A DNA stretch of 62,693 bases, counting the filler, from Folioceros fuciformis (Eukaryota): the NCBI GenBank assembly GCA_049999805.1. It is 4 parts of 3 records of this genome, joined end to end, with 100 filler letters (N's around TTAATTAATTAA, not from the genome) between each part and the next. Parts side by side here need not be neighbours in the genome. Positions count along the whole stretch, not along the records: positions 1 to 18,814 come from JBNGIO010006289.1; 3 more parts are not named here. One strand, given 5' to 3'. A model generated the notes under the pieces. It ran no database searches. It saw only the letters and a list, made by a program, of their open reading frames with translations, and was not told the DNA's origin. This document shows positions 7,993 to 14,363 of this stretch, piece by piece (the first letter of the stretch is position 1; the number at the start of each line of letters is the position of its first letter). Position numbers and translations under genes: made by a program.

Positions 7993-10565
7993 TCACCTCA
8001 CGCTAACAATATCGTCGATTTTCATAATCATTCGGACACACTCCGTGGCGAGAGACATGGCACTGGTGCTCACTAACAGTGGTTGAACCACGTTCTCTTC
8101 TAGGATATTTGTAATTTGCCCCTTTCTGACATTGATTCCCGTGTTGACCTGCAACGTATCGTCAAACACGCATTTTCAGCCCAACTTGTCCGGTCAGCGT
8201 CCGGACATAGCAAGCAACTTAAATAGGCGAACATAATGGGGACCCCACCTCGCCATTGGCATGCCGGTTACGAAGCTCCGTCACAATGCTGATAGGGTTA
8301 AGGCCTGCATTTTCTGCTAGTGTATAGGGGATCACCTGTGCAATGTATCAACCAGCCCGGTTAGCAGAAACGCTCAGGACAGAATGCAACAATCGGGTCT
8401 GTGCTGCATCCTTACCTCCATTGCTTCAGCATACGCCCGCACACAGTAACTCTCCATTCCCTGCAACGTCTTTGCCCAAGCACCCAGCTGCCGAGACACT
8501 TCGATCTCCGGAGCACCTCCTCCAGCAATCAGAAATCGTTTCAACACTAGACATCTTACCACACAGAGCGCATCATGCAAGCTGCGCTCAGCTTCATCCA
8601 GTACCTACAGTGGCGATAAAAAACCAAGGCAATGCCTTGCATTAGACTGCGCCGGAGTGAACTTCAGCAGTTCATTCTATGGACAACCAAACTAACCAGC
8701 TGGTTGGAACCCCGGATCAGCACACTGGTAGTCCTTCCCATGTTTTTGATCCCTGTTACCTTAACGATCTGAGGAAACATGCGGACAAGCCATCAGACCA
8801 GACGGTCCATCAAAGATAAACAGAAACATCTGACAGAGGCGAGCATCTTGTTGAGCTTACCCTGCCAGCACCAACAGTAACTTCTTCAACCAAATCTGCC
8901 TGCCCAAGCTTTTCCGCGCGGAAATGCTCAATGTTGGAAATAGGCAAGCAGTTTAATGTTTTGCTTACGAACTCAATGTCATCCCGCTCGACATCCTTCA
9001 CTACCAGAATTTTAGCCTTTGCAAGGTAGTGCAGAGACAGATCAGTGACGGCATCTCTCAAGATACTCTTCTGAATCAACAGGACGTTACACCCTGTTGC
9101 CTTTATCTTTTTGATCATGCCCAAAATGAGGTTGCGCTCCTCTTTAAGTATTCTATCCATCTGCAAGAATGCAAGTAGTGAGGATAAAATTAAGCAACCA
9201 TAGTGTTTCAATTGAAGAAGTCATGTCGCACCACGCTGACACAGAGAACGCAGGGCAGCCATCAAACCTGCGTGTAGTCAGAAACAACGATGTTCTGCTC
9301 GATATCTGTCTTAGGTGGAGATATTTGAAATTGTATCAGCCCAATTTTCGCATTTTCAATGCGGGTGGGCCCTCCAGCTGCATGACTCGCCTTCTTATCA
9401 AAAATGAGGCCTTTAATAATCTCAGTGTTGTCAACCTACAGGCACAATGAATGTCTGAGACCTTCAAACCATCATGAAATGCAAGATCCACAGAGATAGA
9501 ACCGGAGAGAAAGTCATACCGTGCCACCAAGCTTTGTCAAGACTTTCACATCTCGCAAATCCACACTGTCAGGGTGCACAGGGTCAATGATATTCAAGAC
9601 TGCATCCACTGCCAGAGGCGCCAAAAGAGATGAATACTGACTGACAACCTGACAGCACCACGATGGAGTTAGGAGCAAAACCCAGCAGTAAGCTTCAACT
9701 AACAACCAACACATGAGAACCTTGCTGTTTAAAGAGGTGCTTGCACTCTTCACAAGAGCTTCCCGATCTGACAACTCCACTGGATTGGCCATTGCTGTGA
9801 GCACCTGAAGAGCTAGGAGTATGAGTAAAGTCTGAAAGAGTTTAAAGGCGTCTGCAATGGAGTAATGCAACATGGAAGAAGCTAAACCTCAACAGCTTTC
9901 TCAGATGCCTTGTGAAAGGCTTCTGAAATAATGGTAGGATGTACTCCCTTCCCTAAAAGAGTCAAGCACTGCTTCAGCAACGCCCCAGCTATCACTACCA
10001 CTGCACACGATCCAAAGTCCCAGCCGGTTGACTTGAGAACGAAGCGATACAACCGATAGGTAGCAAAATACACCAACAAGCACACAATCCCTAACCTAAT
10101 TCACCAATTCTCCTACGGACAACAAAAGGGCTGTGGACTAGCAAGATCCGACAGGTACCAGTGGTCGTGCCATCCCCAGCAACAATGTCTTGCGACTTGG
10201 ACAGTTCTACCAGAAACTTTGCCGCCGGTTGCAATACGTTCATCTGCGTATACTTGCAAGGGTCAGCTGCACACCCACGCACCAATGCCAAAAGCTGCTC
10301 GAAGACACCGACAGAGTAAAAGGCACCAGACCTTATTCAAAATCGTAGCCCCGTCGTTCGTGATGATCACCTCCCCATTGGCTGTGGCCAGCATCTTGTC
10401 CATCCCACGAGGGCCAAGACTAGTCCTCACGGCATCTGCCACAGCCTTGGCAGCTGTAATATTGGCCTGCCTGATGTCATCCTTGCGCTTGTTATCCACG
10501 TATTTCTCGTTCTTGGCAGCCCTCGATCCGGTTGTAGGAACCACTGCCACCGGCGCTCCCGGCAT
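7993..10565 (-). CDS. CCT4: T-complex protein 1 subunit delta (cytosolic chaperonin CCT4), 11 exons
   Basis: Motifs [54 protein letters not shown] and [10 protein letters not shown]. All 10 introns are GT-AG and keep the frame. Confidence 0.97.
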
Positions 10566-10905
10566 TTTCACAGATCGTCTGGCCTTGCGGACGTGCAAGC
10601 GTCACTAAGCGCAAGCAGCAATCGACCTCTCACACTGCGTCCTCTCTTCACAGCCTTCCCGCGCATTTAGCAATGAGTACCTTAACCCTAAACTCCTAAC
10701 GAGTTGTCGTTGGACTGCGAGTCGCAATTGCTGTGATTTTCCGAGAAAAAAAACTCTGCCATTTGTCGTTTCACGTCCACTTCAAGCTAGCTGCATGTGT
10801 TGCAGATATGCCGGAGAAGGTTGAGAGGATTCGCAGTGCTAGGACCGACCCACAGGAAGGAACGGTTCGCAGAGGCCGCAGGAGCAGCATCAGGCAGTAG
10901 CGAGG

Positions 10906-12249
10906 ATGAGCGGGCTGGTTTGTGCAGCCTGTGGAGTGCAATGGGCTCGCCTGGGAGCCGATGAGGCTTCCGTGAGCAGATCAGGCACGTCGCAAAGTAG
11001 GAAGGTGCAATGCGTGCGGAAAGGAAATGAAGGTTTTGATCAGTGGAGGCCTCCAATCCCGACCAGGTCTGATAAGAAGAGCCTACTTGTGAATGAGAAT
11101 GGCAACTCCATCTCAAATCCCGTTCGGCTGCCGGGGAGATCATTGCCTGGGAAGCAAGCCATCTCGCCGCCAGGGTTGGGCCAGTTTCGTCCACCCTACC
11201 TGCCAGGCTCCAGTCCTCCACCTCCCGTCAGCGGAGCTGAAGAGGAGGAGACGGAGAGGAGGAGAAGTTCACTGGTGGAGCAGGTGAGGGAGAGAATGGG
11301 GACATGGCAGGAGAGGGCTCAAGCCATTGTACAGCTGCAAAAATCAGGTGTCACCGCCGAGGAGCTGTATGATTCCACATTTGTTCCGACGGTTGCTCAA
11401 ACTTGTATGGTGGTAGCTGCACAAGTGAGTTCACGGTTGCTGGAGCCTTCAGGTGCACATTCTGGAAAGCGTGAAAAGACAGAGCTTTGCATGATGCGCA
11501 TTTTAGTTAGTGGTCTGTCGAAGGAAGCATTGGTGTTCATGCATGGTGTCAGCTATTGCTTGCGAATGACAAGGTCACTCATCACGCCAGCCGGCTCGTC
11601 TAATACTGTTGTGTGTCCTGATGACCGAACTGCACGCCTGCCCCTGGATGTGCTTACCAACCATTCTTGTAATATACAGGTCTATGATTCTCTGGTTTCA
11701 TCTCAGAGTGCCGAGGACATTCTGAACAGGTTCGATGAGGACAAAATCGACATATTGTATGCTCTAAGGATTCTGTCTGCCCGGCAGCGAAAGGTTGAGC
11801 TCAACCTACCAACCAACCAAGGGTCGAGTACCGTAGGTTATGTAAGCGCCTAACCTTGCTCGGCGATGCAGGCAGCTGCAGAGTTCGTGATTCAGCGAGA
11901 CCTAGATGTACCTGGAGCTCAAGAATTAGCTCGTGCAATCAAAGAGCACGAACGGAGACCCCTTGGCCGTGAGGTTTGTGAGCTCAACTGTTAACTATGG
12001 TGGAAGGTTAAGAATGGTTTGAAGGTTGCTTAGGGACACCATCTGAGGCGATCGACCCGTACATGCTTTCAGGGTTTCACCACAGCGCCTGGAGACTGCC
12101 TCGCTTTCATGCTGCACAATGCAGCCACTGAGACCAAAGACGCGGCTCTCAAGAAAGGGTTTGTTGAACGAGCTCTCGGGGTGGTATCGTCCGACACTGC
12201 CAGGGCCCGGTTTGACGCCTTGATCAGCGAAAGCCCTGTGGAAGTGTAG
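10906..12249 (+). CDS. Rubisco accumulation factor 1-like protein, N-terminal HTH + alpha-helical region only (~303 aa, 4 exons)
   Basis: Exons 10906-11424, 11680-11793, 11872-11973 and 12073-12249. Raf1 motifs QFRPP, RMGTW, VAAQVYDSL, LYALRILSARQRKAAA, AQELARAIK and PGDCLAF. Transit-peptide-like N-terminus. Confidence 0.88.
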
Positions 12250-12256
12250 TACGAAG

Positions 12257-12529
12257 GTGAGCTCAACTGCTGACTATGGTCGAAGGTGAAGAATGGTTTG
12301 AAGGTTGCTTTGGGACACCTTCTGAGGCGATGGACCCGCACATGCTTTTAGGGTTTCAAGAAAACGCTTGGAGACTGCCTCGCGTTCATGCTGCACAGTG
12401 CAGCCATTGCGACCGAAATCGCGGCCCTCAAGACAGGGTTTGTTGAACGACCTCTCGGGGGTGGCATCGTCCGACACTGACAAGGGCCGGTTTGACGCCT
12501 TGATCCGCGATACCCGTGTGAAATTCTAG
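12257..12529 (+). pseudogene. Tandem duplicate of the last intron and last exon of the Raf1-like gene
   Basis: Copy of 11978-12249 at a period of ~279 nt. Translates GFKKTLGDCLAFMLH...; one extra G (CTCGGGGGTGG) shifts the frame to an early TGA at 12478-12480. Confidence 0.9.
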
Positions 12530-13010
12530 TCCGTGCCGAAGTAGTTTGTGTCAGAGGATCCACGACTGGACCGTTCATAGAGATTCGAGACGTGAGAGTG
12601 AATAAATGAACGATGCCGGTGGGATGAGCTGCGGTGCAAGGAAGAGTGAAAGCTATTGGTGGTGGGGAGTTTGCAAGTGACCTTGAACGCATTGCAGAAT
12701 CCTTGAAGCCAAACTCTGACTGGCAGAGTATGGCGGCCCGGCCCGGGCCTCGGAGGCCCGTATCCCCGGACCCGGCGGGACCGGGCAAGCTGTACCTGCG
12801 CACACATGCAACGGCTTGCTGTCCAGGAATGCCTAGGATGTCTCACTCGAGTGGCCACTCTGCTTCGAGCCTCTGGTTACAGACAAGACTCCATGTGGTG
12901 ATTGGACAGGTTGGCGAGCAAGAAGGCCTGCGGTGCTTGGCCTTGGTGATTTCTTCTCCTTCTCCCGCCGCTGCCAGTGCCCTTGCTGTTGGGAGTCGGA
13001 AGTCGGGGCA

Positions 13011-14363
13011 ATGGCGAAGATGGAGTACCGCAATCTGGGCAATACGGGGCTGAAGGTGAGCGTGCTGGGATATGGCTCGTGGGTCACCTTCGGGAATCAG
13101 CTGGACGTGGCGCAGGCGAAGGGGGTCCTGACGAGGTGCCGAGACGCCGGGGTCAATTTCTTCGACAACGCCGAAGTGTATGCCAACGGGCGGGCAGAGG
13201 AGATGATGGGGCAGGCTATCAGGGAGCTNNNNNNNNNNNNNNNNNNNNNNNNNNNNNNNNNNNNNNNNNNNNNNNNNNNNNNNNNNNNNNNNNNNNNNNN
13301 NNNNNNNNNNNNNNNNNNNNNNNNNNNNCTGGGCTGGAAGCGCAGCGACTTGGTGATTTCCACTAAGATTTTCTGGGGAGGGACGGGGCCCAACGAGAAG
13401 GGCCTGTCGCGGAAGCATCTGGTGGAGGGCCTCAGGGGCTCGCTCAAGCGGCTGGACATGGAGTATGTGGACCTGGTGTATGCGCACAGGCCCGACACCA
13501 GCACCCCGATCGAGGAGACTGTGCGAGCCATGAACTGGCTCATCGACAGGGGCTATGCATTTTACTGGGGTACGAGCGAGTGGTCCGCCCAGCAGATCAC
13601 GGAGGCCTGGGAGTGCGCCAGACGGCTGGATCTGATCGGGCCGGCTATGGAGCAGCCTGAGTACAACCTGCTCAATCGTGAGAAGGTCAGCCAATTCCTA
13701 GGCCCGGATTAGTCGCCGGTCTCCATCTTTGATCTTACGTGTTTGGCTCACGCTGCTGTGTTGCTTCTAGTGCAGGTGGAAGTAGAGTATGTGCCCCTTT
13801 ATAAAAGCTATGGCACCGGATTGACTACCTGGAGTCCTCTTGCATCGGGTGTGCTCACCGGGAAGTACAGCAGAGTTCACGTCCCTGGCGACAGCAGATT
13901 CGCTCTGGAGAACTACAGGGTGAGTGAGGAAGCATTTGGGTTCAAGATTGAACAAGTTTGTTTTCTTAGTGGCTCGTGTGATTTCTTCTGCAGAACCTGG
14001 CCAGCAGATCCTTGGTTGACGACGTGCTCAACAAAGTGGAGAATCTGAGGCCCATAGCCCAGAAGTTGAATGTAAGCTTGGCGAGGTTGTGCATAGCCTG
14101 GTGCCTGAAAAACCCGCATGTCAGCTCGGTAATCACGGGAGCCACTAAGGAAGCACAGGTGAGGAACAGTTGGTGTGTGGCCTTTTAGGTTTCACTAGTT
14201 GGAAGCACAGGAATCTAGTTTATTCCTTGTTTCGCCTGCCTGCCTGCAGGTCGTTGACAACATGAAGGCTTTGGAGGTGGTGCCTCTGCTGATACCGGAG
14301 ATATGCGAAGAAATTGAGTCCGCTGTACAAACGAGACCCAAGCTACCGGAACTATATAGGTGA
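13011..14363 (+). CDS. KAB1: Voltage-gated K+ channel beta subunit / aldo-keto reductase, 4 exons
   Basis: [60 protein letters not shown], ending PELYR*. The flanks of the 100-N gap overlap (GAGCT / CTGGGC), giving IRELGW with nothing obviously missing. Confidence 0.95.

Follow-up and report, generated by a model that had tools for sequence, protein, structure and literature searches.

Gene model of the locus

The window, that is, the whole 62.7-kb stretch of Folioceros fuciformis DNA analysed here, carries a gene for a short form of the Rubisco chaperone Raf1, located between a TCP-1/cpn60-type chaperonin (CCT) gene and an aldo/keto-reductase (KAB1-like) gene (Table 1). Plant Rubisco depends for its assembly on a small number of chaperones, Raf1 among them, and Raf1 is a limiting factor when foreign Rubiscos are transferred between species. 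To our knowledge, all mechanistic work describes Raf1 as an obligate dimer of subunits composed of an alpha and a beta domain. Here, the alpha domain was recognized by the Pfam families Raf1_HTH (PF18579) and Raf1_N (PF18578), and the beta domain by the family RuBisCo_chap_C (PF18087), which follows a flexible linker. The gene in the window is alpha-only. Its coding sequence of 912 nt on the plus strand encodes a protein of 303 aa ending in ESPVEV-stop, and the three introns of the coding region are all in phase 0. Intron 1 is in frame and free of stop codons, yet it is removed in both RNA contigs described below.

Table 1. Features of the short Raf1 gene and its neighbours, in window positions
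Feature	Position	Strand	Description
CCT gene (TCP-1/cpn60-type chaperonin)	ends near 10600	-	introns CT..AC, skipped in the X1 and X2 contigs
5' UTR	10873..10905	+	reach of the RNA contigs; X1 contig from 10873, X2 contig from 10864
Coding exon 1	10906..11424	+	173 aa; variable N-terminal region, two short conserved motifs, Raf1_HTH; joint 11424/11680 in RNA
Motif GFDQWRPP	11032..11055	+	loosely common to the short family as F-x-x-[WF]-[KRQ]-x-P (alignment)
Motif SPPGLGQFRPP	11164..11196	+	short-family version of the [FY]RPP motif
Raf1_HTH part of exon 1	11266-11424	+	residues 121-173
Intron 1	11425..11679	+	255 nt, GT..AG
Coding exon 2	11680..11793	+	38 aa; end of Raf1_HTH and start of Raf1_N
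Intron 2	11794..11871	+	78 nt, GT..AG; RNA joint
Coding exon 3	11872..11973	+	34 aa; Raf1_N profile positions 22-50
Intron 3	11974..12072	+	99 nt, GT..AG; RNA joint
Exon 4	12073..12256	+	last 58 codons (coding part 12073-12249); Raf1_N profile positions 56-105; then 7 nt of 3' UTR
Stop codon TAG	12247-12249	+	end of the coding part of exon 4
3'-UTR intron	12257..12351	+	95 nt, GT..AG; copy of intron 3; X1 joint 12254/12350 (cut +2)
Non-coding exon 5	12352..12566 (at least)	+	decayed copy of exon 4 and 3' UTR; X1 contig ends at 12566
KAB1-like gene (aldo/keto-reductase)	from 13011		two Aldo_ket_red matches

Raf1_HTH was found on exon 1 with an E-value of 2.9e-15 (56.1 bits against a cut-off of 27.3), and Raf1_N extends across exons 2-4, where positions 1-105 of its 106 profile positions are covered. 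Two of these exons exceed the Raf1_N cut-off of 26.8 bits on their own (27.6 bits for exon 3 and 37.5 bits for exon 4), and exon 2 alone scores 16.5 bits, which is below it. RuBisCo_chap_C has no match in the 303-aa protein, which terminates 13 residues past the last alpha helix. The exon joints are further supported by the alignment with the Calypogeia homologues, which is free of gaps and has a common end point.

The initial annotation had described an intact four-exon gene with Raf1 HTH/alpha motifs and a putative transit-peptide-like N-terminus that ends in ESPVEV-stop. The exon boundaries and GT..AG introns of the present model agree with the joints in the RNA contigs, and the Pfam scan that it had suggested returned Raf1_HTH and Raf1_N without RuBisCo_chap_C. 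The four coding exons thus stand, but a fifth, non-coding exon and the 3'-UTR intron preceding it had been missed.

Transcript assemblies and search for a beta domain

Two contigs cover the gene. The 1190-nt contig from run X1 matches the window at 100% identity and extends from 10873 to 12566, with 23 loose letters at its end, whereas run X2 represents a relative that is diverged by approximately 7%. The X2 contig joins the same coding exons and has its stop codon after the alpha domain. In both assembled contigs, introns 1-3 are precisely skipped at the predicted sites. The X1 contig additionally lacks a fourth intron, which starts 7 nt past the stop codon. The X1 and X2 records themselves do not state RNA, and we took both contigs as transcript assemblies because the introns of the short Raf1 gene as well as those of the neighbouring chaperonin gene are skipped. 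Among the other runs, X4 yielded a single 40-nt piece, on the CCT gene, and no piece from run X3 was placed on the window.

A beta-domain exon is reached by neither the X1 nor the X2 contig. We further built a beta-domain HMM from 76 full-length Raf1 proteins and compared it with 2494 six-frame pieces of the whole 62.7-kb window, which gave nothing (best E = 1). As a control, the same HMM was run on 153 Raf1 proteins, of which it matched 92, but not a single one of the 16 short forms. The earlier statement that no beta-domain-like exon lies ahead of KAB1 is therefore confirmed by an HMM that stays silent over the entire window and by transcripts that stop without a beta domain. Splicing to a downstream beta-domain exon, for which a transcript check had been proposed, occurs in neither contig.

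The simplest explanation of a missing domain would be an assembly or annotation artefact, with the beta-domain exons lost in a gap or by misassembly, and the window is indeed a draft with a 100-N gap at 13229-13328. This gap, however, is located inside the next gene, between the two Aldo_ket_red matches of the KAB1-like gene. In addition, independent RNA contigs from two species carry a stop codon and a 3' UTR right after the alpha domain, and independent genomes show the identical architecture. We consider an artefact of this kind exceedingly improbable.

Tandem duplication of the last intron and exon

Intron 3 and exon 4 are tandemly duplicated on the plus strand (11978-12253 and 12257-12533), with a spacing of 279-280 nt and 84-88% identity between the copies. 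The second copy of exon 4 contains a 1-nt insertion and a frameshift, its open reading frame is cut short after 42 aa, and Pfam returned no match for it. In the transcript, the intron copy serves as the spliced 3'-UTR intron and the exon copy as non-coding exon 5. We considered the second exon copy as an alternative coding exon and rejected it, since it is frameshifted, lacks a Pfam match and is located 3' of the stop codon in the transcript. The first copy of the duplicated intron and exon is the coding one, with the decayed second copy residing in the 3' UTR. This decayed duplicate in the 3' UTR of the present species is a new observation that goes beyond the initial annotation. The X2 contig passes from 12230 directly to 12522, with 11 other letters between, and has one copy only. 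Its open reading frame appears to end near AEF-stop at the stop position of the second copy, similar to the SEF-stop of the relatives.

A local duplication with one decayed copy is also what might be expected if the whole gene were a truncated Raf1 duplicate in decay, transcribed but without function. Consistent with such decay, the divergence between the window and the X2 relative in the exons (6.6% in exon 1 and 7.5% in exon 4, values that pool synonymous and non-synonymous differences and are given only for exons with listed differences; of 150 differences in total, 40 were itemised one by one, all outside this gene) is near that of the flanking non-coding DNA (7.9%). However, no indel is listed for the coding exons of the X2 contig, compared with 6 indel sites in the adjacent 707 nt downstream, and the transcripts of both species are intact, as are both copies in Calypogeia. 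Moreover, family members from zygnematophycean algae to a lycophyte agree in architecture and end point, and their alpha domain is intact (see below). A non-functional remnant is thus a very unlikely explanation of this gene.

A family of alpha-only Raf1 proteins

The known range of the short Raf1 family is based mainly on a profile search (HMMER) over 1.84 billion representative proteins, which gave 320 matches. The best 14 of these 320 matches (164-669 bits) are all short or end with the alpha domain, whereas full-length Raf1 proteins (440-500 aa) first appear at 148 bits or less in the same search. By comparison, word-based homologue searches recovered few members (two in one search and eight in another). 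A Pfam analysis covered 61 of the proteins from the profile search. Each of the top 15 proteins has Raf1_HTH and Raf1_N without RuBisCo_chap_C, and 36 of the 46 next-ranked proteins carry all three Raf1 domains. Ten of these 46 are exceptions, and one of them, the partial Closterium model P0058, is itself a short-family member.

Among the liverworts, named short members were found in Riccia sorocarpa, R. fluitans, Marchantia polymorpha, M. paleacea and Calypogeia fissa, the last of which possesses two short proteins of 315 and 320 aa, both intact and both with only the two alpha-domain families. Other named members belong to Selaginella moellendorffii (two proteins), Mesotaenium endlicherianum, Closterium (several proteins) and the moss Ceratodon purpureus (partial models). 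There is no seed plant or fern among the named members of the family. The orthologue search that had been proposed in the initial annotation thus revealed alpha-only relatives in liverworts, a moss, Selaginella, Mesotaenium and Closterium. All aligned short members terminate 3-13 residues beyond the last alpha helix. We regard both the short Raf1 gene and the family to which it belongs as firmly established.

The alpha domain of the short proteins is preceded by the motif SPPGLGQF[RK]PP, which is present in the window protein. Canonical eukaryotic Raf1 has a corresponding [FY]RPP motif in the same place (LYQPFRPP in land plants), of which SPPGLGQF[RK]PP is the version specific to the short family. 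In the Ceratodon and M. polymorpha models, non-homologous run-on sequence begins exactly at the ends of exon 1 and exon 3 of the window gene. Because these run-ons coincide with the exon ends of the window gene, they suggest that the intron positions are shared and that the public models are faulty at these points.

In public records, the short proteins are named "hypothetical protein" or "unnamed protein product", and those of Selaginella "rubisco accumulation factor 1.1, chloroplastic", a label that conceals their difference from canonical Raf1. The nearest cluster in the ESM Atlas, with 60 members from Streptophyta, is a mixed one, as the beta domain is present in 42% of it. A full-text literature search that covered the main text of openly readable papers found none on an alpha-only Rubisco Raf1.

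Phylogeny and origin of the short family

A first tree was constructed from 119 of 153 rows, selected for an alpha-domain coverage of 85% or more. The 16 short rows formed one clade in this tree (SH-aLRT 97), and the other beta-less rows were scattered beside full-length sisters, as expected of fragments. A more careful tree (LG+C20) was then based on 63 chosen rows, including 16 short, 33 full-length eukaryotic and 14 cyanobacterial-length proteins. It recovered the short clade with support of 98/89, a full-length green clade with 99/95 and a cyanobacterial-type clade with 100/99, where the cyanobacterial label is inferred from protein length and because P0055 matches Anabaena Raf1. Within the short clade, the window protein is sister to the liverwort members (96/71).

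Rooted on the cyanobacterial-type group, the maximum-likelihood tree of the 63 rows places the short clade outside all green full-length Raf1 proteins. A duplication confined to streptophytes was not rejected by the AU test (p = 0.273). Profile scores agree with the position of the window protein in the tree. When held out of training, it scored 268.6 bits with the short-family HMM versus 177.0 bits with the HMM of streptophyte canonical Raf1 (+91.6). Three truncated angiosperm models, Nelumbo P0221, Cocos P0224 and Acorus P0226, were considered as further short members and rejected, as their HMM scores are of the canonical type.

A full-length, three-domain Raf1 was found beside the short form in five taxa, Calypogeia fissa (P0171), Selaginella moellendorffii (P0035), Closterium sp. 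NIES-67 (P0225), Ceratodon purpureus (P0158) and Mesotaenium endlicherianum (P0046). The co-occurrence of both forms in these five relatives therefore argues for a paralogue and not for a split gene. Within one species, the alpha domains of the short and full-length proteins are 34-39% identical. Between species, short orthologues share 39-42% identity, compared with 50-57% for the canonical alpha domains of the same species pairs, so that the short proteins evolve faster. Altogether, these comparisons support the placement of short Raf1 in an apparently old, separate paralogue family that extends from zygnematophycean algae to Selaginella and exists beside canonical Raf1.

Of the two interpretations put forward in the initial annotation, an alpha-only paralogue and one half of a split Raf1, the former is thus supported by a monophyletic alpha-only clade and by the full-length Raf1 that coexists with it in five named relatives. 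The monomeric state and the role as an assembly modulator or competitor that the annotation had attached to this paralogue are putative, given a protein that lacks the dimerisation domain and retains most RbcL-contact residues. Under the latter interpretation, the alpha-only half would pair with a beta-domain protein encoded at another locus of the genome to restore a two-part chaperone. The end of the protein exactly at the domain boundary fits such a split, and the search for full-length Raf1 covered proteins from 254 aa up, with smaller ones outside its range. However, five taxa with short Raf1 also possess a complete full-length Raf1, which leaves no need to reassemble one from halves. Also against a split are the missing flexible linker that would tether the two parts, the transcripts without a beta part, and the 62.7-kb window, within which there is no beta-like open reading frame. 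We therefore regard the split gene as a highly improbable interpretation and retained the alpha-only paralogue.

Predicted fold and RbcL-contact surface

The profile of the short family aligns without gaps to residues 12-194 of Anabaena Raf1 (E 1.5e-40), and it also matches the alpha domains of AtRaf1 (4WT3, 8IOJ) and of Syn7942 Raf1 (6SMH). In the AF2 model of a Riccia member, residues 131-316 are helical with pLDDT >90 and the preceding part is disordered. A Foldseek comparison of this model with the AtRaf1 alpha domain (4WT3) gave a TM-score of 0.83.

In the alpha domain of Syn7942 Raf1, 12 residues contact RbcL, as reported in excerpts of PMC7382273, and two of these contacts, R104 and K126, have earlier mutational support according to the same excerpts. 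The contact numbering was verified on the chain in 6SMH, where 12 of 12 letters fit, and was then mapped onto the family alignment. Eight of the 12 contact positions are retained in at least 12 of the 16 short members. R104 and R133 are present in all 16 members, S71 in 15, and Q67, R155 and E159 in 14 each, while position 126 is K or R in 14 members and position 50 (E50 in Syn7942) is D or E in 12. The remaining four, K24, S90, R122 and R160, are not retained in the short family, although two of them, K24 and R122, are R or K in streptophyte canonical Raf1. The window protein itself keeps 8 of the 12 positions and has N in place of R155.

The contact columns of the short family are not more conserved than the alpha-domain average, with a mean consensus share of 0.705 versus 0.628, and 3328 of 20000 random sets of 12 columns equal or exceed the value of 0.705. 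Retention of the contact residues could thus reflect conservation of the fold alone, because these columns do not stand above the domain average. Across the alpha domain, 26 columns are conserved in both short and canonical Raf1, and three are specific to the short family (Q135, E152 and Y155 of the window protein).

These data bear on an alternative in which the alpha-only protein is conserved but acts off Rubisco, with another client or role through its HTH and helical bundle, possibly outside the plastid. Consistent with this alternative are the faster evolution of the short family relative to canonical alpha domains, the lack of conservation enrichment among the RbcL-contact residues, and the loss of K24 and R122. 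Targeting is uncertain as well, since the short Selaginella models have only about 16 residues ahead of the first conserved motif. In addition, the HTH part of Raf1 has a fold likeness to the DNA-binding domains of ParB/Spo0J, which is weak (E 0.04-0.3) and, it should be noted, general to Raf1 alpha domains. On the other hand, the eight retained contact positions include both R104 and K126, the three signature columns of the short family are few in comparison with the 26 shared ones, and the short proteins still carry the [FY]RPP motif known from canonical eukaryotic Raf1. Considering all these points, we find a role off Rubisco rather unlikely, and the alpha-only paralogue is considered below as a factor that binds RbcL.

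Proposed role in Rubisco assembly

Short Raf1 has in common with canonical Raf1 (AtRaf1.1/1.2, maize RAF1 and cyanobacterial Raf1; 4WT3, 6KKM, 6SMH, 8IOJ) the alpha domain and the [FY]RPP motif of eukaryotic Raf1, and it retains most of the RbcL-contact residues, at a conservation no higher than the domain average. It differs from canonical Raf1 by the lack of the charged linker, of the RuBisCo_chap_C beta domain and of the C-terminal active-site tail, as well as by its separate clade and its identity of 34-39% to the full-length paralogue of the same species. The functions of these parts in canonical Raf1 are described in excerpts of PMC7382273, PMC9485235 and PMC12452902. The alpha domain occupies the cleft where adjacent RbcL dimers meet and competes with RbcS. 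The beta domain provides dimerisation and an equatorial contact with RbcL, and the C-terminal tail enters the RbcL active site. When RbcX is bound, only the alpha domain of Raf1 is resolved on RbcL (the same excerpts).

The complexes RbcL8-Raf1alpha8 (6SMH) and RbcL8-Raf1(8)-RbcX(16) (7XSD) are the closest known parallels, as in both of them only the alpha domain is resolved on RbcL, and in 7XSD RbcX displaces the beta domain of Raf1 (excerpts of PMC7382273 and PMC9485235). These structures show that the alpha domain is able to sit at its site when the beta contact is missing. In these complexes, however, the alpha domain is still tethered to the beta dimer, which provides avidity, whereas short Raf1 has no tether.

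Short Raf1 would be expected to bind RbcL at the canonical alpha site, that is, in the inter-dimer cleft that overlaps the RbcS site. Because the beta-domain dimer that clamps two alpha domains round one RbcL dimer is absent, this binding would be monovalent, untethered and of lower avidity, and the RbcL dimers would not be clamped. With neither the beta dimer clamp nor a tail that enters the active site, the protein would cap RbcL assembly intermediates more weakly and be readily displaced from them, and it may work with, or compete against, Raf1 and RbcS. On the basis of these comparisons, we infer that short Raf1, an alpha-only paralogue, probably acts as a monovalent RbcL-binding factor.

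A fuller scenario is offered tentatively, being possible but doubtful in its entirety. Short Raf1 may represent an unrecognised extra factor of Rubisco biogenesis in streptophytes, which would have originated when a duplicated Raf1 lost its beta domain, by the time of the common ancestor of Zygnematophyceae and land plants, possibly before the split of chlorophytes and streptophytes. The factor would then have persisted in algae, bryophytes and lycophytes and disappeared from seed plants. By capping the RbcS-binding cleft of RbcL intermediates monovalently, it might adjust either how Raf1 gives way to RbcS or how assembly feeds back on rbcL translation. If this is true, an alpha-only protein kept beside full-length Raf1 since the zygnematophycean/land-plant ancestor would be a new player in Rubisco biogenesis. 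Short Raf1 would also provide a natural experiment on the alpha domain without avidity. The question is directly testable, as Marchantia polymorpha carries a short Raf1 and knock-outs and tagging are routine in this species.

Among other known systems, microProteins are small single-domain relatives of multi-domain proteins that act through competitive binding. Short Raf1 resembles them as a single-domain paralogue that comes from a two-domain protein, has lost the oligomerisation half and is co-expressed where the full protein is kept. Classic microProteins, however, retain the dimerisation domain and poison the complex, whereas short Raf1 retains the client-binding domain, and competition is putative in its case. 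Finally, RbcX, a Rubisco assembly factor, resembles short Raf1 as a small, all-helical protein, and it binds RbcL and is displaced by RbcS (excerpts of PMC5859369 and PMC9485235). Unlike short Raf1, RbcX has an unrelated fold, is a dimer and binds the C-terminal peptide of RbcL rather than the alpha-domain site.

Short Raf1 family in public gene models

In the mosses and Marchantia polymorpha, the short, alpha-domain-only Raf1 family is probably understated by faulty public models. Two records from Ceratodon purpureus (P0118 and P0234) and one from M. polymorpha (P0232) switch to unrelated sequence at exon ends of the window gene, the switch points being exactly the end of exon 1 (…VAAQ) and the end of exon 3 (…GRE); these models probably run into introns. 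The beta domain is also missing from some angiosperm Raf1 proteins of the canonical type, namely P0221 (Nelumbo), P0224 (Cocos) and P0226 (Acorus), of 265–335 aa. As candidate members of the short family these three were rejected, their scores being those of the canonical type; incomplete gene models may account for them, as may isoforms arriving at an alpha-only protein by a different route.

One of the three short-specific alignment columns, at window residue Y155, holds Y in 14 of the 16 short-family rows, F in all 14 cyanobacterial-type rows, and E or D in the green full-length Raf1 proteins. The short family may have retained an ancestral state at this column, a state that could also draw the family toward the outgroup in trees.

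Transcript structure of the short Raf1 gene

Since the first intron is in frame and free of stop codons (see table), the stop-to-stop ORF at 10843–11853 spans it uninterrupted. A transcript keeping this intron would encode 85 extra residues at the HTH/Raf1_N junction. The intron is removed in the RNA contigs of both the same-species assembly (X1) and the related species (X2).

Sequence features of the short Raf1 gene and its downstream neighbour
Feature	Position	Remarks
Short Raf1 intron 1	11425–11679	255 nt, in frame, zero stop codons
100-N assembly gap	13229–13328	Within the KAB1-like aldo/keto-reductase gene, in its first coding part

At the 3' end, the X1 contig stops at 12566, where GT is absent, and its last 23 letters could not be placed within the aligned stretch; they could come from an additional exon, from a difference between strains or from the end of the assembly. 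X1 has separate contigs for the short Raf1 and aldo/keto-reductase genes, with 12567–12731 lacking coverage between them. A 2914-nt X2 contig runs from the short Raf1 gene through the intergenic region into the aldo/keto-reductase gene (12522–13228), which could reflect overlapping UTRs or read-through transcription in the related species.

Neighbouring genes

Within the aldo/keto-reductase gene, Aldo_ket_red matches flank the assembly gap, covering profile positions 2–57 on one side and 61–169 on the other. Upstream, a TCP-1/cpn60-family chaperonin gene and the short Raf1 gene lie head to head (10332–10873). Because only ~200–270 nt separate their RNA contig ends, this arrangement suggests a possible common promoter region for the two chaperone-related genes.
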